A stretch of DNA of 64,000 bases from an uncultured bacterium (GTDB lineage: Bacteria; Patescibacteriota; Minisyncoccia; Phycocordibacterales; CAWITU01). Within the stretch, counting starts at the first letter, position 1; each line of letters opens with the position of its first letter. Below the pieces are notes generated by a model, which saw nothing but the letters and a program-made list of their open reading frames with translations, did not search any database and was not told the DNA's origin. This document shows, in pieces, positions 14,156 through 64,000 of this stretch. A program made the position numbers and the translations under genes. The stretch covers positions 148,627-212,626 of the forward strand of contig CAWITU010000002.1 of assembly GCA_963839205.1 (NCBI GenBank), in the 5' to 3' direction.

Positions 14156-15171
14156 TTACTTAAGACCCGCTTTTATTTCTTTGAGGATTTCATTTGCAAT
14201 TTTTGAGTTCTCTTTCAAAAATTGTCTTGTAGCATCATATCCTCTCCCTAGAATTTCCTCTTTATACTTGTATGAGTTTCCAGATTTGGAAATAATCTCC
14301 ATTTTTTCTCCAAGGGCGATGATTTCACCTTCCCTTGAGATTCCTTCGTTGTACATAAGATCAAATTCGGTCTGTTTGAATGGAGCGGCAACCTTGTTTT
14401 TGACTACTTTAACTCTGACACGGCCACCCATAATTTCTTCGCCTTTCTTAATCTGGGCAATGCGACGAATATCAAGACGCACTGATGTGTAGAATTTTAG
14501 AGCCTTTCCACCTGGTGTCGTTTCAGGATTGCCAAACATCACGCCAATCTGCATTCTAATTTGGTTAATGAAAATAACAATTGTTTTGCTCTTAGCGACG
14601 ATACTTGTGAGCTTACGAAGAGCTTGAGACATGAGTCTGGCTTGTTTACCAACATGCATTGCTCCCATATCACCCTCAATTTCATCTTTTGGAGTAAGGG
14701 CTGCGACTGAGTCTATAACGATTACATCCATCTTTCCTGATCTAACAAGTGATTCAACAATTTCAAGAGCTTGCTCACCTGTGTCTGGTTGAGAAATTAA
14801 CAGTTCGTCAATTTTTACACCAAGTCTTTTGGCGTATTCTGGGTCCATGGCGTGCTCGGCATCTATAAAAGCACAGATGCCATCTTTCTTTTGAGCCTCT
14901 GCAATGACATGAAGGGTAGAGTTGTCTTTCCAGATGATTCTGGTCCAAAGACTTCAATAATGCGTCCTCTAGGAAGACCACCGACTCCAAGAGCGGCATC
15001 TAATCCAATTGAGCCAGTCGAAATAGCATTAACATTAACTCTCGGTTTATCACCGAGCTTCATGATTGAATCTTCACCGAACTTACTTCTAATTTGTTTT
15101 AGAGTGTCTTCGACGTTTGTGACCCCAACTGTTTTATCTTCCTTTGGTTCTTTCTTTTTTCCAAATGCCAT
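14156..15171 (-). pseudogene. recA: recombinase RecA, reading frame broken once (near 14915)
   Basis: The N-part ends [10 protein letters not shown] (Walker A). The C-part, read in another frame, continues [34 protein letters not shown] single-base indel at cta-ccc-ttc restores a normal RecA. Confidence 0.9.
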
Positions 15172-28704: not shown

Positions 28705-30424
28705 ATGAAGAGTGCTCTTATCAGGCTAAGATTTGTCTCGGTAATAATTATTCTCATTGGTCTGGTTCTTATTGTAAGACTTTTTTCTCTGCAGGTAGTA
28801 TCCGGTTCGGACTTTAGAGATGAAGCAAACCAACAATACATAGCACCGACTAGCAATATATACGACAGAGGTTCAATCTTTTTCCAGGATAAAGATGGAA
28901 ATCTTTTGGACGCTGCAAATCTTGAGAATGGATATATTATGGCGATTAATCCTGAATTGGTTACCGATCCAGAAGGTGAGTATTCTAAGATTCAAAATAT
29001 TTTACCTACTGACCACACCACATTCATCCAGAAGGCTACAAAGAAAAACGATAAATATGAACAAATTGCTGATAGAGTAAATTCAACAACTACTAATGCC
29101 GTGATTGCCTTGAATCTTCCAGGAGTAAGTTTTTATCAAGAAAAATGGCGTGATTATCCACTAAGTACGCTAGCCTCCCAGGTTATTGGATTTGTCGGCT
29201 ATGATGGGAATATTCTTGATGGGAGATACGGATTGGAAAAATATTACGACAGTACTTTGGAAAGGACCAACCAAGATCAAAATGTGAATCCTTTTGCTGC
29301 TCTTTTTGCTAGTATTCCTTCAGTTATAAATTGTGATTCCAACGCAAAAGAGGGTGACATTGTAAGTACGATTGATCCGAACGTTGAATCCTATCTTGAG
29401 CAAGAATTACAGACATTACAAGATGACTACCATTCAAAAATTTCTGGCGGAATTATTATTGACCCAAATACAGGTACAAATATATGCCATGGCTGGTAAT
29501 CCATCTTTTGATCCAAACACTTATCAAGATGTTGATGACATTGGAGTTTACACTGATCCACTGGTTCAGAATGTTTATGAACTTGGTTCAATTATGAAAT
29601 CAGTGACGATGGCAATTGGAATTGATACAGGAGCAGTTACCGCTACAACTACTTATGATGATACGGCCTCAATCACTTTAAACGGTAAGACAATTCACAA
29701 TTGGGATCTTACTAGTCACGGACTTATAAATATGCAAAAAGTCTTGAATGACTCTCTCAACGTTGGTGCGGCTTATGTCGAAAGTAAAACCGGTAATCAG
29801 AAGTTTGCAGATTACATGTTTAATTTTGGTTTTGGTGGAAAAACTGGTATCGATTTACCTGGTGAAGCCACTAATCTCGTAGCCAACTTAAAAAGTTCTC
29901 AAGATGTTAACTATGCGACAGCGGCTTTCGGGCAGGGTATTGCGGTAACTCCAATTTCAATGGTTCGCGCTTTGAGTGCGCTAGCAAATGGAGGCTATCT
30001 CATTACACCTCATATCATAAGCCAAATACAATATACAGATGGCACTGTTGAAAATATTAATCCACCAAAAGGGGCACAAGTTATCTCAACTTCAACATCA
30101 AAAATTATTACAGGAATGCTTGTAAATGTGGTGGACCAAGCTATGGATGCCGATGTTGGAGGTGGATTGAAACAGGCTCATTACGCAATTGCGGCAAAAA
30201 CTGGAACCGCCCAACTTGTTGATACTCAGGATGGTGGTTATTATGATAATCGATTTCTACATTCTTTCTTTGGCTATTTTCCAGCAAATAATCCACGTTT
30301 TCTCATCTTTCTTTTCACTGATGATCCACAGGGGCAGGAACTGGCTGTCCATACTCTAGCATTTCCTTTCATAGACATTGCTAAGTTTATGATAGGCTAC
30401 TATAGTATTCCACCAGATAGATAA
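28705..30424 (+). pseudogene. penicillin-binding protein 2 / FtsI-type transpeptidase (one apparent frameshift near 29475)
   Basis: N-terminal TM and dimerisation domain. Transpeptidase motifs S-I-M-K (SxxK), SLN, KTGT. The junction reads IIIDPNTG/QIYAMAGNPSFDPN. Confidence 0.85.
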
Positions 30425-36435: not shown

Positions 36436-37243
36436 AACCATCACGACTGAATTATGTTAAAAACATCCAATTTTAAGCGGCCAAAATAACAGCTATTTTT
36501 AACTGTTGTCTTGAGAAGACCGCTAAAAGCGGTTTTTTTAATAACATAACCGACTGTAACTTGAAAAAATAATCCCGCAGCAACGTTCCCTTTTATACAA
36601 GGGGTCTTTAAGACGTTGAACAGCGGAAACAGGTAAATTCCAAACAGTAAGTTTGGAATAGTAGAATAAACAAAAAACGTGGTTTTTAAATATCCTAATA
36701 GGATATTAAGAGCGTATGGTGGATGCCTAGACTCCAAAGAGGCGATGAAGGACGTGGCGTAGCTTACGATAAGCTTCGGGGAGGTGCCTAGCAACCTTTG
36801 ATCCGAAGATTTCCGAATGGGGAAACCCCACTTGATTTAATTCAGGTGATCTCTTCGCAAGAAGAGGAGCAAACCCGGGGAAGTAAAACATTTCAGTACC
36901 CGGAGAAAAAGAGACTAATAAGAATTTCCTAAGTAGCGGCGAGCGAAAAGGAAGAAGCCCAAACTCAGCCTTCCTATAGAGGGCACTCGTAAACTCGTTT
37001 ACTCGAGTATGCGTCGTACACTCTATTGGGTGGCTGGGGGTTGTAAGGTGACAGTCGTATTTGATACAAAGAGTTACAAAATAATTCGTTAATAGAAAAC
37101 GCTGGAAAGCGTTGCCCTAGAGGGTAATAGCCCCGTACATGAAAATGAATTATCTCTAACTGTCATTCTTGAGTACTTCGAGACACGAGTGGCTCGGAGG
37201 AATCTGCCGGAACTAACCGGTAAGGCTAAATACTCTTGGAGAT

Positions 37244-37282
<39 letters not shown>

Positions 37283-38721
37283 GCCCGACGAGGGCAGTGA
37301 AATAGATCTGAAACCATACGTTTACAAGGTGTCGAAGAGGTGCTTGCACCTCGACGGCGTGCCTATTGAAGAATGAGCCAACGAGTTGATGCATATTGCA
37401 GACTAAGCCCGAGAGGGTGGAGTCACAGGGAAACCGAGCGTGAATAGCGCGTAAGTATTATGCATCAGACCCGAAGCCAAGTGAGCTTGTCATGTGCAGG
37501 GTGAACCAGGGAGAAATCTCTGGGGAGGCCCGAACCGGTAAGCCGTTCAATACTTTCGGACGACATGTGATAAGAAGTGAAAAGCTAATCGAACTTGGTA
37601 ATAGCTGGTTCTCTCCGAAATAGCTTTTGGGCTAGCGTCGGATGTTCCTCTTAGGGGTAGAGCACTGGAAGGTCTCGACAGGTCGAAAGATCGCGAGACC
37701 TATCAAACTCCGAATACTAAGAGTTAAGAATCCGGCAGTTAGACTGCGGGGGCTAAGCTCCGTCGGTCAAAAAGGAAACAGCCTAGATCTCAAGTTAAGG
37801 TCCCTAAATTTATGCTAAGTGCACTTAAGGCGGTGAAATTTCTCTGACACTGAGGAGGTTGGCTTAGAAGCAGCCATCCTTTAAAGAAAGCGTAACAGCT
37901 CACTCAGTAAGAGATTTCGCACCGAAGATAATCGGGGCTAAGCATAGTACCGAAACTGAGGGTTTATTTTGTCTTAGGACAAAGTGAGCGGTAGGAGAGT
38001 ATTCTAATCTGCTGTGAAGGTAAAGGGGTGACCCATACTGGAGCGTTTAGAAGTAAGAATGTTGGCACAAGTAACCACAATGCGAGTGAAAAACTCGCAC
38101 GTCGAAAGATCAAGGTTTCCTTGGCAATGATTGTCAGCCAAGGGTTAGTCGGGCCTAAGGGGATGGCGAACGCCGAACCCAATGGACACATGGTTAATAT
38201 TCCATGACTTCTTCATTTTCTGATGGAGTGACAAAGGTCAGTATTGTACGCGATTTATGGATTATCGTTATTGGATTAAGGGTGTTTTACAGGCAAATCC
38301 GTAAGACATAAGCCCAAGATCAGATAAAATGCTTCGCTTAGGCGAAGATAATGTACAAAAGCGGCCTTTCAAGAAAAGCTTCTAAAGATAAAAATGAAGG
38401 AACCGTACCGCAAACCGACACAGGTGATCAGCTCGAGTAGAGCAAGACGAACGAATGAGAGGTCCCCAAGGAACTCGGCAAAAAAGCAGCCGTAACTTCG
38501 GAATAAGGCTTGCCCTTTGTTAACTCAAAGGGCCGCAGCTAAAGTATCTCTGGCAACTGTTTATCAAAAACACAGCTCCCTGCGAACTCGTAAGAGGATG
38601 TATAGGGGGTGACACCTGACCAATGCCAGAAGGTCAAATATCGACGTTGATAGTAGCAATATTATTGGTGATTGATATAAGCCCTGGTGAATGTCGGCGA
38701 TAACTATAATCGTCCTAAGGT

Positions 38722-38956
38722 TCTCAACTGATTCTTTTTGAATGAGTTGAGAAGGACTGGGACGATCATAGGAAATGATAAATAGTTTTAATAATCAAAG
38801 TTAATTACACAAAAGCTACCTACAATGCAGTAATGTATTGTTAGTCCAATATGGTTAATAAGAGACCAACACCATACATCCTAAACAATTTTGCAACGGA
38901 CTTGTCCTCTGCGAAGTCGAAGGATGAAGATAGAGTCCAACTTGAAGGAATAGTTG
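38722..38956 (+). other. 235-nt group-I-like intron/IVS in 23S after U1931
   Basis: The flanks join to CCTAAGGT|AGCGAAATTCC (conserved sequence). The insert follows a T and ends in G. R/S-like blocks AAGAGACCAACA and AAGATAGAGTCC. No ORF. Confidence 0.65.
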
Positions 38957-39619
38957 AGCGAAATTCCTTGTCTGGTAAGTTCAGACGCGCACGAATGGTG
39001 TAATGACTGGAGAACTGTCTCGGGGACTTGTTCGGTGAAAATACAATACCGGTGAAGATGCCGGTTACCTGCAGTTAGACGAAAAGACCCCAGAAGCTTT
39101 ACTACAACTTGGTATTGAGGATATGTTTTTGATGCGTAGCATAGTGGTGAGACTTTGAAGTTTTGTTCTCGGATAAAATGGAGTCAACAGTGAAATAGCC
39201 ATCTTTAAAAATATATTTTCTAACCTCATCGGTAAAAACGGTGAGAGACAGTACCTGGCGGGTAGTTTTAGTGGGGCGCTATCCTCCTAAAGAGTAACGG
39301 AGGAGTTTATTAAGGTTAGCTAGGCGCGAATGGAAACCGTGCCGATAGTGTAATGGCATAAGCTAGCTTGACTGCAAGACGGATATGTCGAGCAGGTGCG
39401 AAAGCAGGACATAGTGAACCGACGGTCCGTATTAGATGCGGCCGAAGATTATCAGACAAAAGCTACTCTGGGGATAACAGGCTGGTTGCGCCTAAGAGTC
39501 CAAATCGACGGCGCAGTTCGGCACCTCGATGTCGGCTCATCATATCCTGGGGCTGGAGAAGGTCCCAAGGGTTTGGCTGTTCGCCAATTAAAATGATACG
39601 CGAGCTGGGTTCAGACCGT

Positions 39620-39916
39620 TCAGAATCGAATTTTTTCGGTTTTGGACCGTCTGAATCGTCGAGGAAATATTATTGTTGCGACCACGCAATATCTGTTAAC
39701 TTGTCCATCACGGCGGCCATAAGGAGAAATTCTTGTGTGCACAGCTGACTTATATCGGTGAATTCCACATTCTATGAAAAGAAGTGCGAGGACGCCTAGG
39801 GAAAATAAAACGAAATTTTATTGCCCGTAGAGACTAAACGTCAGCCATCTTCGTTTGAATTTATTCAAAACAGATGATTACATAGTCCATTCCACACAGT
39901 GATGTGTGAAAAGAAG
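39620..39916 (+). other. 297-nt group I intron in 23S after U2593 (peptidyl-transferase centre)
   Basis: The flanks join to GGGTTCAGACCGT|CGTGAGACAGGTT. The insert follows a T and ends in G. R-like GTAGAGACTAAACG (39827-39840) pairs via GACTA/TAGTC with S-like ACATAGTCC (39880-39888). No ORF. Confidence 0.75.
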
Positions 39917-39968
39917 CGTGAGACAGGTTGGTCTCCTATCTACTGCAGGCGTTGATTTTTGAGAAGAT

Positions 39969-39999
<31 letters not shown>

Positions 40000-40310
40000 T
40001 GACCTCTGGTGTGTCGGCTGTCCTGCCAAGGGCACTGCCGAGTAGCTAAGTCGGGAAAGGATAAACTCTGAAAGCATCTAAGAGTGAAGCCTACTTCAAG
40101 ATTAGAAATCGTAAGACCCGTAGGAGATGACTACGTTGATAGGCGCTAGGTGTAAGACAAGCAATTGTTTCAGCCGAGGCGTACTAATTGTCATTCCTAT
40201 TAGGAAATTTGGAAGTCACGCATTTGTTTATCGGCGCAGGCGAATATCAGTTGAAAAGGTTTTGCGCCACAGAATACCTGTTTAAATAAATTAAAGATCG
40301 AACGTTCAAT

Positions 40311-40419
40311 TCTGGTGATTTGGCGGAAGGGCAACACCTGTTCTCATTCCGAACACAGAAGTTAAGCCTTCTTGCGGCGATGATACTCTTTTGGAGGGGA
40401 AAGTAGCTAGTCGCCAGTA
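40311..40419 (+). rRNA. rrf: 5S ribosomal RNA
   Basis: TCTGGTGA..CCGAACACAGAAGTTAAGC..TCGCCAGT with paired termini, about 100 nt after the 23S. Confidence 0.9.
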
Positions 40420-49462: not shown

Positions 49463-49837
49463 ACCCCCTACGTCCTTAATGGGCGGTTCTTTGAAAATTA
49501 TCTGTCTAAAATCACGATTTATCTTGAATTTAGACAGATTGAAATATTGCCCTGTGTAGCTTTAGCGTAGAGCGGGTAGGACCGAGAACGTATTAACGCT
49601 CTGTATTGCCTCCTATCGAGCAGCTATGGAGGGAAAACGTGCAAGTCAATTAAAATATTTTTTTGTTCTCCCGCGGAGCTCGTCAGAGCAAAGTGGGAGT
49701 AAATAATTCCAAAAACAATGATCAATTGTTGGATGAGCTAGGATCAAACTTGTTGGTGAAATATAAATTTAGATTAAGTACTATTTTTTATTTTGCCTCA
49801 TTCTAATAAATATAAGTATTTATACTTTTTATTTAAT

Positions 49838-51324
<1,487 letters not shown>

Positions 51325-52397: not shown

Positions 52398-53451
52398 ATG
52401 CAAAATAAAAAAACTAAATATAATTGCCACAATTGGTCCTGCTACTGAAAGTCAGTCACAGTTAGAAAAACTACTCAAAGCGGGTATGACTTTCATGCGC
52501 CTAAATTTTTCGCATGGTGATTTTGAAGAGCATGCTAAGAAAGTTAAGAATCTAAAGAAGGCTTCCAAGGCTACTCATATGAAGGCAATAACATTTCAGG
52601 ATCTCGGGGGACCAAAAATACGAACTGGAGAATTTCATACTCCAAGTGGTAGGGCCCATATTGAAGCAGGTGAAAAGTTTATACTTACCACTTTAAAAGC
52701 AAAAGGAGATGGAACCCGAGTTCATATAACTTACAAGAAATTACCAAAAGAAGTTAAAGTCGGTCATCGAATTATGCTTGATGATGGAAAAAAGGAATTG
52801 GATAGTTACTTCCATAAAAGGAACAGAGATTATTACTAAAGTAATCGTCGGTGGGGAACTCAAAGGGAGACGCGGAGTTAATCTTCCTGATACCAATCTT
52901 TCAATCAGTTCACTAACATCGAAAGATAAAAAAGATTTAATTTTTGCTATTAATCATAAACTTGATTATGTCGCGCTTTCATTTGTCAGGATCCTTCTGA
53001 TGTGATTGAACTTCGCAAAATTCTTAAAAAAGCTGGATCAAAAGCTGGTATCATTGCGAAAATAGAAACACCTCAGGCTGTAGACCATATTGATGAAATT
53101 ATAAAATTATCTGACATGATTATGGTAGCGAGAGGAGATTTGGCAGTTGAAATTCCTGCTGAAACAGTTCCATTGGTTCAGAAAATGATTGTTAGAAAAT
53201 GTAATAAGGCTGGTAAGCCAGTCATTGTGGCCACTCAGATGTTTGAATCAATGATCCATGCTTCAACACCAACTCGCGCCGAAGTCTCAGATGTGGCTAA
53301 TGCGGTCTTGGACGGCGCAGACGCTGTTATGCTCTCAGAAGAAACCACTTTAGGTTCTTATCCGATTGAATCAGTAGTTATGATGAATAAAGTAATTACT
53401 GCAACTCAAAAGGAAATGCGAAATCCTCATTTTCTTAAACACATAGTCTAG
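52398..53451 (+). pseudogene. pyk: pyruvate kinase (A/B domains only), about 3 apparent frameshifts
   Basis: [78 protein letters not shown] 52398 is out of frame across a 7-A run. Further frame changes near 52805 and 52995. Confidence 0.85.
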
Positions 53452-53574: not shown

Positions 53575-53577
53575 ATT

Positions 53578-53650
53578 CGGAGCATAGTGTAACGGCTAAC
53601 ATACACGATTCGGGTTCGTGTGATTCTGGGTTCGAATCCCAGTGCTCCGA
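53578..53650 (+). tRNA. tRNA-Pro (anticodon CGG), CCA not encoded
   Basis: Acceptor CGGAGCA/TGCTCCG, anticodon stem-loop CACGA-TTCGGGT-TCGTG, T arm CTGGG-TTCGAAT-CCCAG. Confidence 0.9.
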
Positions 53651-53677
53651 TGTAAGAGGCGAATCCCAGTGCTCCGA
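53633..53677 (+). repeat. 18-nt direct duplication of the tRNA-Pro 3' end
   Basis: CGAATCCCAGTGCTCCGA occurs at 53633-53650 (inside the tRNA) and again at 53660-53677, separated by TGTAAGAGG. Confidence 0.9.
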
Positions 53678-53700
53678 AAACAGAAGTTGAAGTTAATGAT

Positions 53701-53946
53701 ATGTTGGTTTATAGTAGTGTCATGAATAAACATCTGATTGTTGCAATTTTAGGGTTAGTTTCATTTCTTTTAATTTTTCCAAGTTTTCCGATTATGTGGA
53801 AACTTTATTTCTTTGCAATTTCAGGCCTCGTGCTTTGTTGGATTGGTACAACACTTTATTTTCAAGACCGAAAAGAAGCCAAAAATAAAAGAGGCAGTAG
53901 ACCTATGTTGGAAGAAGCAAAAACATTCGTTGAGAATGTTGTATAA
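53701..53946 (+). CDS. small two-TM membrane protein
   Basis: 81 aa with two hydrophobic helices and a basic C-terminal tail. Confidence 0.45.
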   Translation: MLVYSSVMNKHLIVAILGLVSFLLIFPSFPIMWKLYFFAISGLVLCWIGTTLYFQDRKEAKNKRGSRPMLEEAKTFVENVV

Positions 53947-53960
53947 TTAGCTCATAGATA

Positions 53961-55763
53961 ATGAATAATGAGGAAAAAGTAACTTATTTTGCCGAGACCG
54001 ACTCGCGCAACAAGCGGATTCCTTTTGGCATCAAAAATAAGGATAGATCTCGCCACACTTATGTGATTGGTAAAACTGGCATGGGTAAATCAACTTTGCT
54101 TGAGAATATGGCTGTTCAGGATATTAAAAACGGCGAAGGCTTTGCTTTCATTGATCCTCACGGAAAATCAGCCGATCTTCTTCTTGAATATATTCCAGAG
54201 TCGCGAATTAAGGACGTACTGTACTTTGCGCCATTTGATATGGAGTACCCAGTCTCCTTTAATGTGATGGAGGATGTAGGGGCTGACAAAAGGCATCTTG
54301 TTGCAAATGGTTTGATGAGCGCTTTTAAAAAGATTTGGGTTGACGCTTGGTCAGCTCGTATGGAATATATTTTGAATAATATTCTGTTGGCCCTCCTTGA
54401 ATATCCAGATTCAACTTTGATTGGTGTTAACAGAATGTTGGCGGACAAGGATTATCGAAAGAAAGTCGTTGATAATATTACTGACCCGTCGGTTAAATCT
54501 TTTTGGGTTGATGAATATGCTAAATACACTGATCGTTTTGCTGCCGAAGCCGCACCTGCAATTCAAAACAAAATTGGACAGTTCGTTTCTAATCCGCTCG
54601 TTAGAAATATTATTGGTCAACCAAAATCAACTTTTGATATTAGAAAATTGATGGATGAGAAAAAAATTCTCATTATTAACCTTTCCAAAGGAAGAGTGGG
54701 TGAATCAAATGCCAACCTTTTGGGGAGTATGCTTATCACTAAGATTTATCTAGCGGCAATGTCTCGAGCCGATCTAAGTGAAGATGAACTTAAAACCAGG
54801 CCCCATTTTTATCTCTATGTGGACGAATTTCAAAACTTTGCTAATGAATCATTCGCAGACATTCTTTCTGAGGCTAGAAAGTATAAATTAGATTTAACTG
54901 TAGCCCATCAATATATTGAGCAAATGTCGGAAGAGGTGAGGGCGGCGGTTTTCGGAAACGTTGGTACGATGATTGTCTTTAGAGTGGGTGCTTATGATGC
55001 TGAAGTATTGGAAAAAGAATTTGCACCACAATTTACAGCGGAAGATCTAGTTAATCTTGGTTTTTGTCAGATATATTTAAAATTGATGATTGATGGGGTA
55101 AGTTCATCACCTTTCTCGGCCGTAACATTACCGCCAATTAAAAGGGAAGCAACTTCTTTCCATAATCAGATAATTGAAAGTTCCAGAGATTCTTATGCTA
55201 GACCTCGTAATGTTGTTGAAGAAGAAATTAAGATTTGGCATGCTCCAATTGAATCACCAAGACCCGCTCAAGCCCCAAGATCTGCTTTTGTGGACAAGAA
55301 GACTATTCCAACAACTCAAAATCAGTCACCAAAATTTACAGCGCAGCAACCCAGAGAATCAATTAACCGAGATAGAAAACCATTCGCACCTCCGCTTCCA
55401 CCACCTGCTCCGGTTCAACAAACACCAGCTCAGACTCGACAAGCGGAGCGTAATGTTCGAGATTCACGTGAGACTGAGATTCGAAAGGCGATGTCATTGG
55501 ATTATTTAAAACCAAAGGTTGAACCTGAAAAGAAAAAAGAGCCAAGTGCTCAAAATATTGCAGACTTAAGAGCGGCACTTCTTTCGGTATTGCCAGCAGA
55601 ATCAATTAAGCAGACCCAGCCACCAGCTCCTCAACCTAAGCCTAAAATGCTAGAAGTAAAAAAAGAGGAGACTACTGCTGTTCAAAATAATGAAGCTAAG
55701 ACAAAAGAGGTTCCGGAGGAGGTTCTAAGAAAAATATTACATGTCGATGAACCCGAAAGTTAA
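53961..55763 (+). CDS. TraD/VirD4-like (type IV coupling-protein family) P-loop ATPase with Pro/Gln/Lys-rich tail
   Basis: Walker A GKTGMGKST, Walker B-like HFYLYVDEFQNF, AHQYIEQM. The C-terminal roughly 190 aa are low complexity (PPLPPPAPVQQTPAQT..). Confidence 0.65.
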   Translation: MNNEEKVTYFAETDSRNKRIPFGIKNKDRSRHTYVIGKTGMGKSTLLENMAVQDIKNGEGFAFIDPHGKSADLLLEYIPESRIKDVLYFAPFDMEYPVSFNVMEDVGADKRHLVANGLMSAFKKIWVDAWSARMEYILNNILLALLEYPDSTLIGVNRMLADKDYRKKVVDNITDPSVKSFWVDEYAKYTDRFAAEAAPAIQNKIGQFVSNPLVRNIIGQPKSTFDIRKLMDEKKILIINLSKGRVGESNANLLGSMLITKIYLAAMSRADLSEDELKTRPHFYLYVDEFQNFANESFADILSEARKYKLDLTVAHQYIEQMSEEVRAAVFGNVGTMIVFRVGAYDAEVLEKEFAPQFTAEDLVNLGFCQIYLKLMIDGVSSSPFSAVTLPPIKREATSFHNQIIESSRDSYARPRNVVEEEIKIWHAPIESPRPAQAPRSAFVDKKTIPTTQNQSPKFTAQQPRESINRDRKPFAPPLPPPAPVQQTPAQTRQAERNVRDSRETEIRKAMSLDYLKPKVEPEKKKEPSAQNIADLRAALLSVLPAESIKQTQPPAPQPKPKMLEVKKEETTAVQNNEAKTKEVPEEVLRKILHVDEPES

Positions 55764-57108
55764 GGCACTCATTGAGGGAAAGAAAATAACTGTTATGGGC
55801 CTCGGCCTACTCGGCCGAGGCCTTGGTGATGTCCGTTTTTTAGCTTCTCATGGAGCTATACTTACTGTCACCGATCTTAAATCTAAAGAAGCACTCAAAG
55901 AGAGTCTGGCTTCACTTCAGGATATTCCAAATATAGTTTTTCATCTCGGAGGCCACGTTCCTCAAGATTTTAAAAATTGCGACATGGTTTTAAAAGCCGC
56001 TGGAGTTCCACTAGATTCCCCCTACATTGCTGAGGCTAGGAAGAATAATATACCGATTGAAATGAGTTCTGCTCTTTTTACAAAATATGCAGAGGTGACA
56101 GTGATTGGAGTCACAGGTACAAGAGGGAAATCAACGGTGACCCACCTCATCCACAATATGTTGGTAAATAATTTTGAAGGTTCTGATACCGAGGTGTTTC
56201 TTGGTGGAAATGTGAAAGGAATTTCCACATTAGCTCTTTTTGATGAAATTAAAAAAGGGGACTACGTTGTTCTTGAACTTGATTCATGGCAACTACAAGG
56301 TTTTGGTGAAGATAAGATAAGTCCCCATATTGCGGTATTTACGACATTCATGCCTGACCACATGATTTACTATAAAAATGATATGAATCTTTATCTTGAA
56401 GATAAGGCAAATATTTTTAAATTTCAAAATGGTAATGATTTCTTGGTGCTCGGAGAGCAGGCAGTGGACTTGATAGAGGAAAAATATGCTGGAGTTATTA
56501 AATCAAAGAAAATAATTGCAAAAAATAGCGACATTCTGAGTAATACTAGAATCCGTATCCCCGGAGAACATAATATAAATAATATTTCTGTCGCAACTCA
56601 GGTCGCAAAAGCTTTAAATATTTCTGATTCGGTCATTAGAAGAAGTATTGAATCATTCAAGGGTGTGCCTGGAAGGTTAGAATTTTTAGGCGATAGGGAT
56701 GGTGTAAAAATTTATAATGATACAAATGCGACTTCACCTGAGGCAACCATTGTTGGTCTGAAAGCACTCTCGAAAGATAAGAATATTGTTCTAATTATGG
56801 GAGGGCACGATAAAGCACTAGATATGGCTGAGCTGATTAAAGAGATTCCGAACCACTGTAAGAAAGTAGTTATCCTGCCTGGGACCGGAACGGATCGTGT
56901 TTATGAGTCTATCGTTGGGACTAATGTGCCTGTAGAGAAGGCAAATGACTTGGCCGAAGCCGTGGGAAGTGCCTTGGCTTCGGCCACATCTGGTGACATT
57001 GTCCTCCTAAGCCCTGCTTTTGCCTCATTTGGCCTGTTTAAGAACGAATATGACCGGGGTGATCAGTTTAATATCCTTGCTAAAAAATGGCTTAGCAAAG
57101 GCGTATAG
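55741..57108 (+). CDS. murD: UDP-N-acetylmuramoyl-L-alanine--D-glutamate ligase
   Basis: Rossmann-like N-domain (ITVMGLGLLGRG) and Mur ligase P-loop GVTGTRGKST. Full three-domain length. Confidence 0.9.
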   Translation: MSMNPKVKALIEGKKITVMGLGLLGRGLGDVRFLASHGAILTVTDLKSKEALKESLASLQDIPNIVFHLGGHVPQDFKNCDMVLKAAGVPLDSPYIAEARKNNIPIEMSSALFTKYAEVTVIGVTGTRGKSTVTHLIHNMLVNNFEGSDTEVFLGGNVKGISTLALFDEIKKGDYVVLELDSWQLQGFGEDKISPHIAVFTTFMPDHMIYYKNDMNLYLEDKANIFKFQNGNDFLVLGEQAVDLIEEKYAGVIKSKKIIAKNSDILSNTRIRIPGEHNINNISVATQVAKALNISDSVIRRSIESFKGVPGRLEFLGDRDGVKIYNDTNATSPEATIVGLKALSKDKNIVLIMGGHDKALDMAELIKEIPNHCKKVVILPGTGTDRVYESIVGTNVPVEKANDLAEAVGSALASATSGDIVLLSPAFASFGLFKNEYDRGDQFNILAKKWLSKGV

Positions 57109-57170
57109 TTTAGGTAATTATCCTCATATCCATTTGATTTATCCCTTGTTTGTGATATAATAGGCAACGT

Positions 57171-57458
57171 ATGAAAAACAGACATTCAAACGGGAACAGC
57201 GGTTTCATTTATGCGGCTTTTCTGGTTTTGGGAGCACTTTTCATCTTAGCTTCAGGGGTTTCAACCCTCTTAAGTGATGGAGGAAAAGCTGACCCAGGAG
57301 ACCTCTCAGGGGCTACTCCTTTTACTGTGGCTGCAGTAGCAACAAGTACAGCAACCTCAACAGATGATCTAGTTGCCTCAAGTAGTGTGGATATGACAGC
57401 TTCGTCTACAGCAACCACAACTATTGATTCAACTTCTACAGCAACTTCAAGTAATTAA
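57171..57458 (+). CDS. small TM-anchored Ser/Thr-rich protein
   Basis: TM (FIYAAFLVLGALFILASGV) followed by a low-complexity tail, ATSTATSTDD..SSTATTTIDSTSTATSS. Confidence 0.4.
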   Translation: MKNRHSNGNSGFIYAAFLVLGALFILASGVSTLLSDGGKADPGDLSGATPFTVAAVATSTATSTDDLVASSSVDMTASSTATTTIDSTSTATSSN

Positions 57459-57497
57459 TCTTAGTTAGTAAGAGATTTTGTACTATAATAGGTTTCT

Positions 57498-58768
57498 ATG
57501 AAAGAGGAAATAAATATTTCTGATATTAAAAATGTCTACTTTATAGGCATTGGTGGTATTGGCATGTCCGCTTTAGCTCTCTATTTAAAACACCTTGGGA
57601 AGAATGTTGTCGGTTCTGATACTGGCTTCGCTTCGTATGAAAATTTAGTTGAAACTGGTATAGATGTTCACAAAGATTATGACTCAACCAGAATAACTTC
57701 TTCGTATGATGTTGTTGTTTATACTTTAGCAACTCCGAAAGATAATGAAGAACTTTTGAAAGCGGGTGAGTTGGGACTGCCAATCTTCACTTATGCTGAA
57801 ATGTTGGGTTTGGTCTCAAAGAATAAAAAAACTATCGCTATCTCGGGCACTCACGGTAAGACAACTACCACCGCCATGGTCGCTAAAGTATTAATTGATG
57901 CCGGCCTTTCACCAACTGTTATTGTTGGAAGTTTACTTAATTATCCTTTTGGCCAATCAGAAAAGAAAACTAATTTTATTGCAGGCGATAGTGAATACTT
58001 TGTCGTTGAGGCGTGTGAATATAAAAGATCATTTTTAAATTTATATCCATATATTTTGGTAATAACAAATATCGAAGCTGATCATTTAGATTATTATAAG
58101 GACCTCAGTGATATTCAAGAGGCATTCAAGGAGTTGTCAGATAAGGTGCCGAAAGATGGTCCATAATCACTTCAGCGGAATATGACAAGTATATTCAGTC
58201 AGTACCACCTTTAATGAAACCAGGAGAACATAATCGGAAAGATGCTGCTGCGGCATATGCTGTGGCTAAGAAACTTGGAATTCCAGAGGAGGTGATAAAG
58301 AAATCACTTGCTGATTTTCCAGGAACCTGGCGACGGTTTGAATACAGGGGAAAAACTCAAATTGGCGCCTTAATTTATGATGATTATGGTCATCACCCAA
58401 CCGAAATTAAAGCTACATTAGAAGGAGCCAGAGAATTGTTTGGAGATAAAAAAATAATTGCCGTTTTTCAACCTCATCTATACAGCAGAACTAAAGATCA
58501 CCTTCGTGATTTTGGTGAAGCGTTCACAGATGCAGATAAAGTTATTATTGCTCCAATCTTTGCTGCAAGAGAACCATTTGATGATTCAATCTCTTCTGAG
58601 ATGCTAGCTGAAGAAATAAATAAAAATGAAACTGGAAAAGCCCGCGCTATTTCATCTTTCGATGAAATAGCGCGGGCACTTCTTTCTGAAATTTCTTCAA
58701 ACGACGTAATAATTACTATCGGCGCAGGTGATATCTACAAAGTCATTGATCATCTGATGAATAAGTAG
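57498..58768 (+). pseudogene. murC: UDP-N-acetylmuramate--L-alanine ligase (frameshift near 58165; shortened central segment)
   Basis: GIGGIGMSALA, ISGTHGKTTTTAM, NIEADHLDYY, then after a frame change ..PGEHNRKDAAAAYAVAKKLG..GTWRRFEY..DDYGHHPTEI. Confidence 0.85.
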
Positions 58769-58776
58769 ATTAAAAT

Positions 58777-59913
58777 TTATCCGTTGAGTATTGGTTCTAG
58801 TCTTTGAAATAAATCCAAAGCATTGCGAAAAGTCTGGTCCATATTAAAATATTTATAATTGGCCAATCGCCCTACAAAATAGATACCATTATCTTCTAAC
58901 TTTTCAGCTTCAATTTTATACTTATCGTAAATTGAGCGATTATTTGCAGATGGAACAGGATAATATGGTTCACCGTCCCAAGTTGGATACTCGCGCACGA
59001 TTGTTGTTTTTGGATTTATCTGTTTTGTTTGATGCTTATACTCAACTATTCTTGTAAAGGGTATTGAAATGTCTGGATAGTTTTCTTGCACAACCTCCTG
59101 AAAAAATTCTTGATTCAATGTTTCCTCTTCGAAACGAAGTGATCTATATTCTAATTTACCAAGTTCCTCTTTAAAATATGAATCAATCTTACCTGTAAAA
59201 AATAGCTTATGGTATGACACAGAACCCTGAATTTCTTCCCAGCTAGTGTTAAGTCTAATCTCTATATTTTGACGATTAAGCATATTTTCAAAAATCTTAG
59301 TGTATCCATCCTTTGGGTAATATTGATATTTGTCAGTAAAGTATCTGTCGTCATGGTTTTTTCTAATTGGAATTCTGTCCATAACACTTGGTTCAAGTTC
59401 TCTTGGACTTTTATCTCATTGCTTGGTCGTGTAATTCTTAAGCATCTTTTCATATAATCTTTTACCAGCTCTTTTTAGTGCGGATTCCTCAGAATTTTGA
59501 GGTATTTCTATTTTCTCGACCTCTTTGTCTAACCATTTCTCCATGTCAGATTCGTCTTTAATCCCAGCATTAAAAATAATATTCACCGTATCCATGTTTA
59601 TAGGCATCGGTACTTTTTTGCTGTCTACATGACTTAATACCTTAGCCTCAAATGGCACCCAATCCGAAAATTTCTGAACATACTGCCATACACCTTCGTC
59701 ATTCGTTCTGAAATAATGTGGCCCATATTTTGAAATTCTAATTCCAGATTCATTATCCTGATCATAACAGTTTCCACCTATATGATTGCGTTGTTCTATA
59801 ACAAGAATTTTTATTTCTTTATTTTGTGCGTACCTTTCTGCAAGAGTTGCTCCAGATATTCCAGCCCCAACAATAACAATATCCCACCTTTCTTTGGTTA
59901 AGGTAGTCTTCAT
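58777..59913 (-). pseudogene. glf: UDP-galactopyranose mutase with in-frame TGA at a conserved Trp
   Basis: FAD motif VGAGISGATLAERYA. The two tracked ORFs are in the same frame, separated only by TGA (59416-59418) in ..NYTTKQ*DKSPRELEPSV.., where UGMs have KQW. Confidence 0.85.
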
Positions 59914-60776
59914 TTTCTTAATTCCGTATCAATTTTTTGGAAGATAGCCGAATCAATATTCAAATCAAATTTACGAGCAAACAATTCGGGAGTTTTTTTA
60001 AGTGATTCAAGATCATGAACAGTGAAGGTTGCGGGATAGGGGCCATAGGGCTTGGACCAGTCTACGTAGGTTAAGTTTTTATTAATAATGTTTCCCTTGA
60101 TATCATCGTTGCTATTTAATAGTACTGTTTGAAAGAATAATTCATCAGCTAAATAGACATGTTTAAAGAAATTCAAAAAAACTACATTATTGTTTGAAAA
60201 GTTCACTAAATATTCGGCAACTGATCTTGGGCAACCAAACCAGAGTTCACCACCATATGCCTTGTAATTTAATGGTATCTTTCTGCGTGGTAAGAAGAAA
60301 TTCATTATATTTTCAATTCTTCTCAGATACCTATTGCGCGAAACAAACAAATGATATCGCTTAAAGCGGTGCGTTCCACCACCTTTCCAGCTTGAAATGG
60401 GTAGGGCAGTAAAGGACATAAATGTTTTGTCCCTGTTCTTGCCCAAGTAGTCTATAATTTCTCGAGTTGTTTTAATTGGGTAATCCTGACCACTTAAAAG
60501 ATACAAATAATCAGGATCTATCCTTTCAATTGCAAACTTAAAAGCACTCAATACCGCCCCAAGAACATTACCCCATTTAGATTCTATTTGCGGAGCAAAA
60601 AATACTTTAGAAATGTTTGCAAGTTCTTGCTCAAATTGCTTTATTCCAACTTTTTTATCAACGTGAATGACAAAAAAGCTATTTTCAGATTGGAGGCTAA
60701 GTACAAGCTTTTTTAGCTGGATTGGGTTTTTGTGAACTAAGATAACATATGATATTTTTATATCTGAGTCGCTCAT
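59910..60776 (-). CDS. GT14-family (core-2/I-branching type) glycosyltransferase
   Basis: ISYVILVHKNPIQLKKLVLSL...FFVIHVDKK and the downstream Branch-domain pattern. Confidence 0.75.
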   Translation of the reverse strand: MSDSDIKISYVILVHKNPIQLKKLVLSLQSENSFFVIHVDKKVGIKQFEQELANISKVFFAPQIESKWGNVLGAVLSAFKFAIERIDPDYLYLLSGQDYPIKTTREIIDYLGKNRDKTFMSFTALPISSWKGGGTHRFKRYHLFVSRNRYLRRIENIMNFFLPRRKIPLNYKAYGGELWFGCPRSVAEYLVNFSNNNVVFLNFFKHVYLADELFFQTVLLNSNDDIKGNIINKNLTYVDWSKPYGPYPATFTVHDLESLKKTPELFARKFDLNIDSAIFQKIDTELRK

Positions 60777-60860
60777 TGTATTTGTTGGTTTTCATTATAC
60801 AATAGAACAATATTAATTACAGAATTACTATGAAAGTTGACGCTGAGGACTAAATAATCT

Positions 60861-61706
60861 ATGACAAAACCAATTCTCAGTATATTTTATGTTGTGGGTG
60901 GTGGCGACGAACACTATACCAATCTAGAGCGGAGTATAAAAAGTTTGGAGGAAAGGCTCGGGGTTCCATATAAAGTGGTAGTACTTGAGGTTGGTGAGCG
61001 CCTAGTTTCTACTCTAGGAGTCACCGTTTATCACATTTCTCCATTCGAGAAATCACAAGGAAGAAAAATGGATTTTAAGTTTTGGCAGCAGAAATACACT
61101 ATAGGTGATTATATTGATACCGAATACGGCCTCTATCTAGATACTGACACAGTTCTTGTACAGGATAATTTTGCGGAGATTATGCCTGCAATTGGAAATA
61201 AATTTGGTGTGGCGTTACATTTTTGGTCACCGAATTTTTGGCGCTATGGACGTTTGGCTATTCCTTTAAAAAATGCCTGGCGATTCATTATGTTGATGAG
61301 AAAGCTCGACGTGGGTTTGAGTACCCCATTCTTTGCAGGGGGAGCGTTCATTTTTAAAAATATTGAACAGAATAGACGTCTCCTTAAAGAGGTTCTTTCT
61401 CTTTATGACTATGTTTATCCTGGAGTATCAAATTATTTCAAAGGCATTACTGACGAAGTTTTTTTTAGTGCACTATTGTGGAAAGAGAACAAATTTGTTT
61501 CAATTGGTGGCGGCTTCAATCATTCTTGTATGGGGGATGAATTTATGCCATTGCGTATCGAAAATAATGTTATTTATGGAAAAAATGCCAATGAGGCCAA
61601 ATGGAGGAAAGTAACTTTTTTTCACTGCGATCCATCCAGAAGGGACCCATCCTTGCCTTATCAAGGTAAGTTAAAGGAGCTAGTACGCAGGGTATGGTTT
61701 ATGTAG
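60861..61706 (+). CDS. putative GT-A-fold glycosyltransferase (DxD)
   Basis: 281 aa with YLDTDTVLV (DxD-like). Sits inside the glycan locus. Family not recognised. Confidence 0.4.
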   Translation: MTKPILSIFYVVGGGDEHYTNLERSIKSLEERLGVPYKVVVLEVGERLVSTLGVTVYHISPFEKSQGRKMDFKFWQQKYTIGDYIDTEYGLYLDTDTVLVQDNFAEIMPAIGNKFGVALHFWSPNFWRYGRLAIPLKNAWRFIMLMRKLDVGLSTPFFAGGAFIFKNIEQNRRLLKEVLSLYDYVYPGVSNYFKGITDEVFFSALLWKENKFVSIGGGFNHSCMGDEFMPLRIENNVIYGKNANEAKWRKVTFFHCDPSRRDPSLPYQGKLKELVRRVWFM

Positions 61707-61779
61707 GCCAATTATTTATAATATGCATTGCCTTGGCAACGGTTATACAATGTACAGATGACACCAGTCAACAAATTTC

Positions 61780-62467
61780 ATGAATAAAATAAGCGTCATT
61801 ATGCCGGCATATAATGCTGAGCGTTATATAAAAGATTCCATAGAAAGTATTCTAAACCAGAGCGAACGTGATTTTGAATTTATCATAGTAGATGATGGAT
61901 CTACAGATAAAACTTCATTGATTATTTCTTCTTTCTCAGACCCACGACTTAGAGTTTTTAAAATTAATCATTGTGGTCTTATTTACTCATTAAATTTTGG
62001 AATCTCTAAGGCAAATGGTGAATATATTGCTCGAATGGATGTTGATGATATTTCAGAACCAAACCGTCTCAAAAAACAGGCTGATTTTCTTGATGACCAT
62101 CCAGATATAGCCCTGTGTGGTAGTTTCGCTACAATCATTGATGAAAATGGAAAAGTAAAAGGGAGGTTGGAATATTCGCCGATAGAAGATAAAAATATTA
62201 GGAGATATGCTCTACTCCATAATCCATTTATTCATCCAACGATTATGATTCGTAAGAAAGTTTTCGATTCAGTCGGGATGTATAAATCACTTTTTCAAGC
62301 ATGTTGAAGATTATGAATTATGGACTCGAGTACTCAGAAAATATAAAGGAGCAACATTATCTGAAGCTCCTTTTAAATATCGCATTCATGAAAACCAAAT
62401 TACAAAGAGAGGAAATTTTGAGATGAGATTGCGTGGCCATATATGTAAGGTTATTAGCATTCTATAA
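61780..62467 (+). pseudogene. GT2-family glycosyltransferase (one apparent frameshift near 62300)
   Basis: ISVIMPAYNAERYI..IIVDDGSTD..ARMDVDD, then after a T5 run the frame changes to ..FKHVEDYELWTRVL..YRIHENQITK. Confidence 0.85.
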
Positions 62468-62473
62468 GAATAT

Positions 62474-63269
62474 TTATATTTTAATCCAAGCTACTGGAAC
62501 AATGTCTGAATCTTCTTTTAGTTGAAACCATTTTTTTGGAGCAATCACTATTTTCTCTGAATTTGAATTAAGCCAAGCAGCCCACCAACTAAATGAAGAG
62601 TTGGCTATTATTTGATTTTGCACGAACTCATTAAATGGATTTCTTCATAATCTTTAATTACGTGCGTTTGATACCAAAATTATAGGTTCACAAAATTAAT
62701 ATTTTTTTTTGCCCATTCAATATCATCCGAAAAAATAAAAAACGTGGGGGATTGAACTTTTTCTTTAATGTATTTAACTGCCTTTTTATAATATTCCAAA
62801 TCACAAATTCCATGGTACGCGTTGGTTTTTTGGTCCGTAACATAATCACCACGTCGGATGTGGACTGCGATTGGACTCTGGACTCTGAATAATTAGATCT
62901 GATATTTTATTTGAGTCGCTCGCCAGTGGCAGTTTCAGTGTAAAATCTTCTCGAATAATTTCCTCAATATCCTTGAAATATTTCTCATTCTGGTAATGTG
63001 GGTAGGTGGTGAACAGCTTTTTGGATTCCTTTTTGATAAAATCTTTTTAAATAATTTTTTTTACTAGGTTTAAAAACAACAGCTTGTATATTAAATACAT
63101 CTAAACCAAATCTACGAGAAGTATCTATTTTTTCTGGAAAAATCAAATATTCTAGGTCAAGTATTAATTTCTGGTTTTTTTTAATACTCTGACTTTTACC
63201 TTTAGCATATTGAAACATCTGATTTCCGAGGCCTCCACTAAGATATTGAACAAATGCCCTGTCCACCAT
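62474..63269 (-). pseudogene. GT11-family alpha-1,2-fucosyltransferase, at least 4 frame disruptions including a 7-bp tandem duplication
   Basis: [49 protein letters not shown] are recovered from three frames. GACTCTG is duplicated at 62874-62887. Confidence 0.85.
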
Positions 63270-64000
63270 ATTTTTTCTGATAATGTTTCTTAAGTAATTC
63301 TTAATATAGCTCAAAAATATAATAAGTTTATCCCTTGAAGTCATTTGAATGTTTCTTAAGAAAAAATGTCCACCATATTTTTTCTTGTCTCTCATTAGTA
63401 TTATTGGACCATACGGTAGAACCATTCCTTCTGGATAAGCAAACGAAGGTAATAATATTTTTGTTTCGTCTAATCTTGACGATAAGTATTTGTTCCAATG
63501 GGATTCATCGTGCCATATTGCAGTAATATTTTTTTTAGTGTCATTATCAATATCATTCTGTAATTGTTTTATTGCAGCACAAAACACCTTACTACTTCCA
63601 CCATTTATTGCTCCCTGAAAATATGGTTCATTATCTTTAGGGGTAAAGAATGCTTTAGACATAGGATTGGATTCAAAAGGCTTTTCATTAATTAAAGCGT
63701 TGGAATATCCTGGATGAGTAACCGCAACAAAATTTTCCTTACCGCTTGGTAGTATTTCATTACTTGCTAATGGCTTGATAAATAAAGTATTTGCGTTGAA
63801 ATAAAAAATAAAATCGAATTGGGCGATTTCATCAATATCGTCGAGAACATCTCGTAACGTCTCAAGGTATTATTTGGCCAACCCAAGTCTTCTTGATAAA
63901 TTTTTTTTACGTTTAGGTTATTCTGGCATTCAAATTCGATATTGGAGCATCAGTAAAAACAAAGTATTTTTTTTGCGCCCCAGAAATAAAATATTCCTCA
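63270..64000 (-). pseudogene. GT6-family glycosyltransferase (NXN type), 5' end outside window, 2 apparent frameshifts, no stop before the GT11 ORF
   Basis: EEYFISGAQKKYFVFTD, LGWPNNTLRRYEMF, FDFIFYFNANTLF (NAN instead of DXD), AIWHDESHWNKY, PIILMRDKKKYGGH. Confidence 0.8.

Follow-up and report, generated by a model that had tools for sequence, protein, structure and literature searches.

A GT11 enzyme uses GDP-Fuc to fucosylate a terminal beta-Gal, which yields the H-type disaccharide, and a GT6 enzyme of the A/B type, which requires that fucose, adds alpha-1,3-linked GalNAc or Gal to the same Gal (PMC4202792, PMC3516806). Members of the same two CAZy families produce the A/B-type determinants of Escherichia coli O86 (the GT6 enzyme WbnI and a GT11) and of Helicobacter mustelae (BgtA), where they are encoded by separate genes in the Gram-negative O-antigen clusters of host-associated bacteria (PMC4202792, PMC5377540). 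BoGT6a of Bacteroides ovatus (PDB 4ayj, 4ayl and 4cj8) makes the blood-group A antigen; it has the Asn-x-Asn (NXN) sequence that stands for metal independence in bacterial GT6 enzymes, and its catalytic domain is followed by a basic-hydrophobic-basic (BHB) tail, the membrane-association segment of these proteins (PMC3516806). The locus described here lies at the end of a 64,000-nt window, the whole stretch analysed, from contig CAWITU010000002.1 of an uncultured bacterium, and consists of a GT6 and a GT11 coding region that abut on the minus strand. Unlike the bacteria with O-antigen clusters, its host belongs to the Patescibacteria (Candidate Phyla Radiation, CPR): the RecA relatives listed are named Paceibacterota or Paceibacteria, Nomurabacteria and Parcubacteria, in line with the CPR-like organism proposed in the initial annotation of this DNA.

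Compared with BoGT6a, the GT6 half of the window shares the NXN sequence and the succession of catalytic domain and BHB tail. It differs in that the tail continues into GT11 instead of ending, and in that the gene is frame-broken. With somewhat more confidence than doubt, we read the locus as a terminal-cap module that is fused in frame as assembled and whose frame breaks are mostly consensus errors. The initial annotation is right on the enzyme families and on the glycan logic, since GT6 and GT11 are indeed the enzyme set for H and then A/B-type caps (PMC4202792, PMC3516806), and it overstates how rare such fusions are; that the copy in the window is truly fused or functional is less certain. 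The two halves are placed as follows.

63270-64000, minus strand: GT6 coding region (retaining alpha-1,3-Gal/GalNAc transferase family, NXN type), from the frame-corrected Pfam match
62474-63269, minus strand: GT11 coding region (alpha-1,2-fucosyltransferase family, short CPR type of about 260 residues), in six frame segments

Both family assignments passed the profile hidden Markov model (HMM) thresholds (PF03414 at 74-78 bits, PF01531 at 127-129 bits), and all the GT6 and GT11 peptides quoted at the outset are present on the minus strand at the positions given for them. For GT6, frame-corrected translations scored 77.5 and 73.8 bits against PF03414 (cut-off 25), and the uncorrected 225-residue open reading frame (ORF) that spans the junction scored 42.2 bits. 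A tblastn frame map places the GT6 codons in three frames (63946-63999, 63845-63946 and 63270-63845), with the N-terminal 24 or so codons falling outside the end of the window. The match to BoGT6a (4ayj) has an E-value of 1.3e-43 over 208 residues (phmmer), and the recognizable GT6 elements are these.

within 63845-63946, minus strand: peptide LGWPNNTLRRYEMF, from translation
63789-63800, minus strand: FNAN, the Asn-x-Asn that replaces the DXD metal-binding site, aligned with FFNAN of BoGT6a (Asn95/Asn97)
63597-63620, minus strand: FQGAINGG, the donor-specificity motif, aligned to BoGT6a residues 154-161
63498-63515, minus strand: WHDESH, equivalent to BoGT6a Trp189-His190-Asp191-Glu192 of acceptor/donor binding (alignment; PMC3516806)
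63366-63392, minus strand: RDKKKYGGH, from translation
63270-63359, minus strand: basic-hydrophobic-basic C-terminal tail LRNIQMTSRDKLIIFLSYIKNYLRNIIRKN, ending NYLRNIIRKN, collinear with the tails of homologues

In the phmmer alignment to 4ayj the equivalents of BoGT6a His122, Tyr153, Trp189, His190, Asp191, Glu192 and Lys231 are all kept; those of Lys128 and Thr134 are changed to Ala and Pro. The alignment of FNAN with Asn95/Asn97 bears out the NXN type, and the two asparagines (N71/N73) are invariant in the alignment of GT6 homologues. Judged from these motifs and the profile matches, the two domains are a predicted metal-independent NXN GT6 and a predicted GT11. The Q-G-A of the donor motif falls at the equivalents of human residues 266-268, which read M-G-A in GTB, L-G-G in GTA and A-G-G in BoGT6a; in the bacterial classes, AGG and CGG correspond to A, MGS and QGC to B, and MGG, QGG and TGA to AB (PMC5377540). 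Q-G-A thus suggests a Gal donor, and a B-like or AB-like rather than an A-like cap, so that the GT6 of the window, set against the A-G-G of BoGT6a, would probably prefer Gal over GalNAc and form a product of Gal type.

The 30-residue tail lines up collinearly with those of 12 stand-alone GT6 homologues (240-283 residues, 38-49% identity to the reconstructed query), whose tails of about 25 residues stop where the Met follows in the window. The GT6 coding sequence therefore reaches the junction in full, lacking just a stop codon. We considered the 66 nt between the two 13-nt repeats described below as an insertion, given that BoGT6a, which is truncated in its crystals, looked shorter at this end, and rejected this since the 12 homologues share the tail of about 25 residues.

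On corrected translation the GT11 half scored 129.4 and 127.4 bits against PF01531 (cut-off 23.9), and the conserved motifs GGLGNQMFQYA, HxRRGDY, FSDD and NSSFSWW are all present.

63267-63269, minus strand: GT11 ATG (MVDRAFVQYLSGGLGNQ...), the protein opening MVDRAFVQYLSGGLGNQMFQYA; as assembled, an internal Met of the read-through frame
63204-63236, minus strand: GGLGNQMFQYA
62975-62995, minus strand: YQNEKYF
62842-62862, minus strand: HIRRGDY
62722-62739, minus strand: FIFSDD
62570-62617, minus strand: a 16-residue GT11 motif stretch
62474-62476, minus strand: GT11 stop codon

A loss of about 25 GT11 codons before YQNEKYF was also considered and rejected, as GT11 proteins of the short CPR type (260-270 residues; the protein P0117 and those of loci L003 and L006) are equally long.

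At the junction between the halves, there is no in-frame stop codon between 63845 and 62988 on the minus strand, and the GT6 tail reads into the GT11 Met, with 27 residues between ...FFLRN and that Met.

62985-63662, minus strand: the sole uninterrupted ATG-started ORF (225 residues, P0001, recorded in NCBI/ENA on a contig of 279,057 bp), its stop created by a frame break
63271-63276, minus strand: A6 run (T6 on the plus strand) just upstream of the GT11 ATG, read from the sequence
63282-63294: 13-nt direct repeat AATGTTTCTTAAG, copy 1, encoding LRNI in the tail
63348-63360: 13-nt direct repeat AATGTTTCTTAAG, copy 2, encoding LRNI just past YGGHFF
63260-63278: 19-nt perfect direct repeat, copy X2 (TGTCCACCATATTTTTTCT on the plus strand), encoding RKNMVDR at the junction
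63367-63385: 19-nt repeat, copy X1, encoding the conserved KKKYGGH of GT6 in a frame that differs from that of X2

The 225-residue ORF holds the C-terminal third of GT6, the tail and the first 85 residues of GT11. The claim that one ORF reads from GT6 into GT11 thus stands for the junction as assembled, where no stop intervenes, and fails for the gene as a whole, which carries seven frame breaks and is open over only these 225 residues. GT6 and GT11 share a frame as assembled, though the gene is frame-broken and the junction rests on the A6 run in an indel-prone assembly. By this reasoning the in-frame junction would depend on the length of that run: with A7, GT6 would end in ...RKKYGGQGICSIS followed by a stop codon and GT11, as an ORF of its own, would overlap it by 37 nt.

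The 13-nt repeat reported earlier is present, its copies 66 nt apart, and taken alone is within chance, as three repeats of this kind within 200 nt were observed in the window against 0.44 expected under a third-order Markov model. The initial annotation missed the adjacent 19-nt repeat, which is significant: it is the only repeat of at least 16 nt in the window, and none arose in 100 third-order Markov simulations. Its copies are spaced by 107 nt, the X2 copy includes the GT11 start codon, and the pair is no tandem duplication. One possibility is that the 19-nt repeat is a templated patch that created the junction.

Contrary to what had been supposed, fusion of the two families is not in itself an unusual design. 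A GT6 profile search of genomes, one for each species, gave 80 loci, whose stop-to-stop ORFs we all scored against HMMs of GT6 and GT11 made from the matches. A GT11 lay within 10 kb at 69 of the 80 loci, immediately downstream on the same strand at 20 and immediately upstream at six. The combination was common in metagenome-assembled genomes (MAGs) of CPR bacteria (Saccharibacteria, Nomurabacteria, Paceibacterota and Magasanikiibacteriota) and in Chitinophagales. Eleven tight GT6-to-GT11 junctions were examined, six of them with a 4-nt NTGA stop/start overlap, one with a 16-nt overlap and four with gaps of 0-12 nt; this layout is one indel short of fusion. The coupled pairs of Chitinophagales, Bacteroidota and CPR (for example L028, L073, L054 and L037) resemble the window in that a BHB-tailed GT6 precedes a GT11 on the same strand, and differ from it in the overlap of the GT6 stop TGA with the GT11 start (NTGA) and in having the two genes in different frames; the window has no stop there, and its two halves share one frame.

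Fusions within a single ORF occur repeatedly, in either order. Among the 80 loci, GT6 precedes GT11 in L039 (577 residues) and in L002 (from a Saccharibacteria MAG, truncated where the contig ends), and GT11 precedes GT6 in L064 and L071. When the 225-residue junction ORF was run exhaustively against 1.84 billion cluster representatives with HMMER, the best non-self matches included fusions of 528-557 residues that aligned in one stretch across the junction: P0024 (query residues 2-194), P0026 (8-193), P0054 (2-201) and P0058 (10-196). P0024 and P0026 were also aligned across the junction by tblastn; P0041 aligned across it and has no GT11 domain in the HMM scan. Altogether 19 GT6-to-GT11 and six GT11-to-GT6 arrangements were found among the proteins and locus ORFs scanned, some of them within larger multi-domain proteins. 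One fusion belongs to a cultured bacterium, Desulfocurvibacter africanus (WP_005984176.1/EMG38429.1, 557 residues), and is annotated as 'Glycosyl transferase family 11/Glycosyltransferase family 6'.

The architecture as assembled in the window matches this recurrent GT6-GT11 family of about 530-560 residues. The D. africanus protein, P0024, P0026, P0054 and L039 have the domains in the same order as the window, and in the database fusions, as in the window, the GT6 tail forms the linker, both Pfam families score above threshold and the alignment is continuous over the junction. The differences are that these fusions have only 37-48% identity to the window domains, that the window has a linker about seven residues longer, with a Met and a copy of the 19-nt repeat in it, and that the window has no continuous ORF. 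An AlphaFold (AF2) model of P0024 (mean pLDDT 82) has two confident domains joined by a helix (residues 246-261) from the GT6 tail, and its N-terminal domain superposes on BoGT6a with a TM of 0.92. Full-text searches found no literature description or assay of GT6-GT11 fusions. We note that CPR GT6 proteins often carry other C-terminal modules past the tail, among them GT2, an FkbM-type methyltransferase and an unknown domain of about 270 residues (loci L007, L008, L012 and L024; proteins P0025, P0041 and P0050), and GT6 apparently acts as a fusion hub.

Both domains lack an intact ORF. Seven frame breaks of the 1-nt type fall within 1.53 kb (62617-63946, minus strand), two in GT6 and five, between 63020 and 62617, in GT11.

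about 63946 (-1) and about 63845 (-1), minus strand: GT6 frame breaks, from the tblastn frame map
62996-63020 (about 63010, 1 nt), about 62880 (+1 or a 7-nt duplication), about 62688 (-1), about 62662 (+1) and about 62617 (-1), minus strand: GT11 frame breaks

The breaks at about 62688, 62662 and 62617 were verified as indels against an intact allele on the Logan contig L001 (run ERR10755936, 3,145 bp). The sequence CAGAGTC-CAGAGTC near 62880 was considered as a 7-nt tandem duplication that would prove mutation; this was rejected because removing one A restores the frame equally, and chance alone would give about four 7-mer tandems of this kind in 64 kb. Of the columns with 90% or higher conservation among 90 homologues, the frame-corrected GT6 and GT11 keep 28 of 28 and 35 of 36, respectively, and intact homologues do no better.

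Frameshifts are also found in core genes of the window. The recA gene (14156-15171, minus strand) is split into ORFs of 102 and 230 residues by a single-base deletion between ...GKTTL and LHVIAEAQ, and the RecA relatives listed (89-96% identity) are almost all intact at 335-390 residues, with a few fragments of 230-300 residues; this split points to consensus indel errors in the assembly. In a gene for a class-B penicillin-binding protein (PBP; FtsI/PBP2; 28705-30424, plus strand) an extra base near 29478 separates the dimerisation from the transpeptidase domain, the pyruvate kinase gene pyk (52486-53451, plus strand) has two frameshifts about 200 nt apart, near 52800 and 52995, and murC (57498-58768, plus strand) is in two ORFs through a single-base shift near 58160, its homologue in L003 being intact (434 residues). 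Isolated frameshifts in four core genes (recA, ftsI/PBP, pyk and murC) indicate that the assembly carries consensus indel errors, and, together with the lack of amino-acid decay in the corrected GT6 and GT11, they favour such errors over pseudogenisation. We therefore lean towards an artefact or a very recent inactivation, while granting genuine pseudogenisation a substantial, lesser probability. We propose that most of the breaks would be consensus errors concentrated in a strain-variable stretch; going by the preserved residues, the real gene probably still works, or else lost its function only very recently.

Contig L001 is 100% identical to the window over 2.69 kb (59603-62290), which covers the GT14 'Branch' gene, a 281-residue gene and most of a GT2 gene, and from 62291 it differs over 460 nt (the comparison reaching 62749) by 28 substitutions and six indels, about 7% divergence. 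The GT2 gene in question converges on the GT11 gene.

61780-62484, plus strand: convergent GT2 gene, with a +1 frame break at 62291 (T5 vs T4)

On L001 the GT2 gene is intact (226 residues) and the last 91 GT11 codons are in frame. The substitutions are biased to third codon positions, with 10 synonymous against eight non-synonymous codons, and reflect a second, selected haplotype and not decay; within the glycan cluster, a sharp boundary of haplotype or recombination lies at position 62291.

Both halves have unfused nearest relatives. The best matches of the corrected GT6 are without a GT11 domain (P0025, L003 and P0005, 52-54% identity), being stand-alone or joined to other C-terminal modules, and those of the corrected GT11 are without a GT6 domain (P0117, L006 and L003, 48-50%). 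A separate GT11 search gave the same picture in its best 120 matches, all without a GT6 domain and the best at 57%; one of them, P0413, also has GT2-type Pfam domains. The best GT11 homologues are stand-alone proteins at 50-57% identity. Protein searches found no relative above 57% identity to either half. Of the nucleotide searches for a near-identical strain, that of contig-encoding data gave only the 3.1-kb contig L001, and the scan of genome contigs and two exact-pattern scans of metagenome contigs gave none. The closest sequences are those of L003 (uncultured bacterium bin-2449) and L006 (Magasanikiibacteriota), with 49-52% identity in GT6 and 48-49% in GT11. L003 shares the neighbourhood of GT2, GT6, GT11, convergent GT2 and murC; the two genes that abut in the window are there separated by a 230-residue gene on the opposite strand, and in L006 by a gene for a 346-residue membrane protein. 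The copy in the window is, from these comparisons, probably not a descendant of the known fusions, and with its nearest relatives unfused the junction, if real, would be a recent and independent fusion.

Several observations weigh against a fused module damaged mostly by consensus error, and some of them favour other explanations. Seven lesions in 1.53 kb, against about one per 11 kb elsewhere in the window, amount to a 20- to 40-fold local excess, for which the error model must assume that consensus quality falls off locally; most of the indels lie outside homopolymers; and the adjoining 2.69 kb shows zero differences from the short-read contig L001. One explanation for these data, which we regard as a serious though minority candidate, is a true pseudogene, in which GT6-GT11 (fused or not), GT2 and glf were inactivated to leave the remnant of a surface-glycan module that is intact in a sister strain. 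Surface-glycan loci are commonly strain-variable. The density of breaks, the GT2 frameshift at 62291 and a TGG-to-TGA change in glf would fit this, as would the sister haplotype on L001 with its intact GT2 and in-frame GT11 3' end, and the exact match of the flanking 2.69 kb suggests an assembly that is accurate right beside the lesions; given the glf nonsense codon and the broken GT2, a cluster-wide loss of function is plausible. Set against a pseudogene is the nature of the damage, which is confined to indels with 63 of 64 highly conserved residues kept, no fewer than in intact homologues. Natural decay with seven indels should bring several-fold more substitutions, whereas the substitutions relative to L001 look selected in their third-position bias, and single-base frameshifts in recA, ftsI, murC and pyk are improbable as real mutations of a free-replicating cell.

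The fusion itself is open to a different doubt, as its frame rests on a single A6 run, and the unfused nearest relatives, contrary to descent from a fused ancestor, together with the intervening genes in the syntenic loci L003 and L006, give a true fusion in this lineage a low prior. There is accordingly a considerable chance, short of even, that GT6 and GT11 are two separate genes, translationally coupled or overlapping like those of most relatives, and that the fusion comes from a single-base indel at the junction, whether real or an artefact, most obviously A6 for A7 at 63271-63276. All 11 tight junctions examined are one indel from fusion and seven of them have a stop-start overlap, the nearest homologues of both halves stand alone, indels here occur at about one per 220 nt, and A7 would give GT6 its own stop and GT11 its own ATG. 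That version, however, has a GT6 tail about 13 residues longer than in any of the 12 homologues and a 37-nt overlap in place of the usual 4 nt, whereas the assembled tail ends where theirs do, the alignment to bona fide fusions crosses the junction unbroken, and fusions occur in CPR relatives (L002 and P0024). Two further mechanisms were considered and both are very improbable. In Helicobacter pylori the GT11 genes are classic phase-variable loci (futC, with homopolymer slippage and -1 ribosomal frameshifting), and the breaks could in the same style be on/off switches of a surface antigen, as the T4/T5 break of GT2 at 62291 in a short homopolymer might suggest; yet one switch would be enough where there are seven independent breaks, most sites are non-repetitive and none coincides with a long homopolymer or simple-sequence tract. 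We would give equally little credence to a recombination switch, in which a 107-nt deletion between the 19-nt repeats turns a tethered fusion into a tail-less GT6 and a separate GT11: the perfect repeat is statistically unexpected and the predicted deletion product has sensible ORFs, but such a deletion is irreversible, a single templated repair event explains the repeat equally well, and the collections searched yielded no second example and no close relative.

If, as we favour, the locus is a terminal-cap module, it would belong to a cell-surface glycan cluster in a Paceibacteria-like Patescibacteria genome. The inverting GT11, with GDP-Fuc as donor, would act first to make the H-type Fuc-alpha1,2-Gal, and the retaining NXN GT6 would then add an alpha-1,3 hexose to the same Gal. 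In a fused form the amphipathic BHB tail would serve as the linker, perhaps holding both catalytic domains at the membrane beside a lipid-linked acceptor. The fullest version of this, a recent, intact and membrane-tethered bifunctional enzyme of the living cell, in which a GT-A galactosyltransferase and a GT-B fucosyltransferase are linked by the tail, fused by a 19-nt patch from 107 nt upstream and able to give a complete B-like cap (Gal-alpha1,3[Fuc-alpha1,2]Gal), is tentative and on present evidence unlikely.

An intact single polypeptide would nevertheless make the fusion family a ready-made one-enzyme route to ABH determinants, and GT6-GT11 fusions could be compact catalysts for H-, A- and B-type glycans. 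Should the breaks be errors, the window would add one more natural GT6-GT11 fusion to a class that is represented in the databases, including one cultured bacterium, and minimal-genome CPR bacteria would be seen to invest in ABH-like surface caps alongside a GT14 'Branch' enzyme. Should they be real, a strain-level loss of a surface epitope would have been documented. Either way, the core-gene frameshifts on this contig caution against taking apparent fusions or pseudogenes at face value without read support. Mimicry of host blood groups is not implied, as environmental CPR and Bacteroidota genomes commonly carry the module, which is therefore not specific to host-associated mimicry; literature searches for ABH-type glycans in Patescibacteria found nothing relevant.

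The cluster neighbours identified in a Pfam scan are the GT14 'Branch' gene, the 281-residue gene of unknown function, GT2 and glf, and no O-antigen polymerase or flippase is among the neighbouring genes scanned (53961-62307). A GT2 homologue occupies the matching position in the syntenic CPR locus L003. The region 59910-61706 comprises the GT14 gene, of the core-2/I-branching family (288 residues), and the 281-residue gene, which is without a Pfam match; GT14, GT2, GT11 and GT6 in one cluster bring together 'animal-like' glycosyltransferase families in a CPR genome. The glf gene (UDP-galactopyranose mutase, 58777-59913, minus strand) has an in-frame TGA at 59416-59418, at the conserved Trp of the family (YTxKQW), and this TGG-to-TGA change is the sole substitution-type lesion seen. 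An alternative genetic code was considered for this codon and rejected, as the genes of the window are long ORFs under table 11.

Elsewhere in the window, a Shine-Dalgarno-like motif was found at six of 43 gene starts, and TATAAT stands a few bases before the ATG in many, which suggests leaderless or otherwise non-Shine-Dalgarno initiation; with the motif at so few genes, a check for it as a sign of an independent GT11 start was uninformative. The 23S rRNA gene (36696-40204) measures 3,509 nt against a model of 2,925 nt and has an insertion of about 580 nt; the 5S gene (40311-40419) adjoins it, and the 16S gene (49834-51324) is unlinked, 9.6 kb away. An unlinked 16S gene and a 23S insertion are an arrangement typical of CPR. 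In the region 53577-53677, the final 18 nt of a tRNA-Pro gene (CGAATCCCAGTGCTCCGA) recur 9 nt downstream of the gene, which is followed by a small ORF (about 53656-53943) and then, in the region 53961-55763, by a TraG/VirD4-like coupling ATPase; the repeat and these neighbours may be an integration scar.

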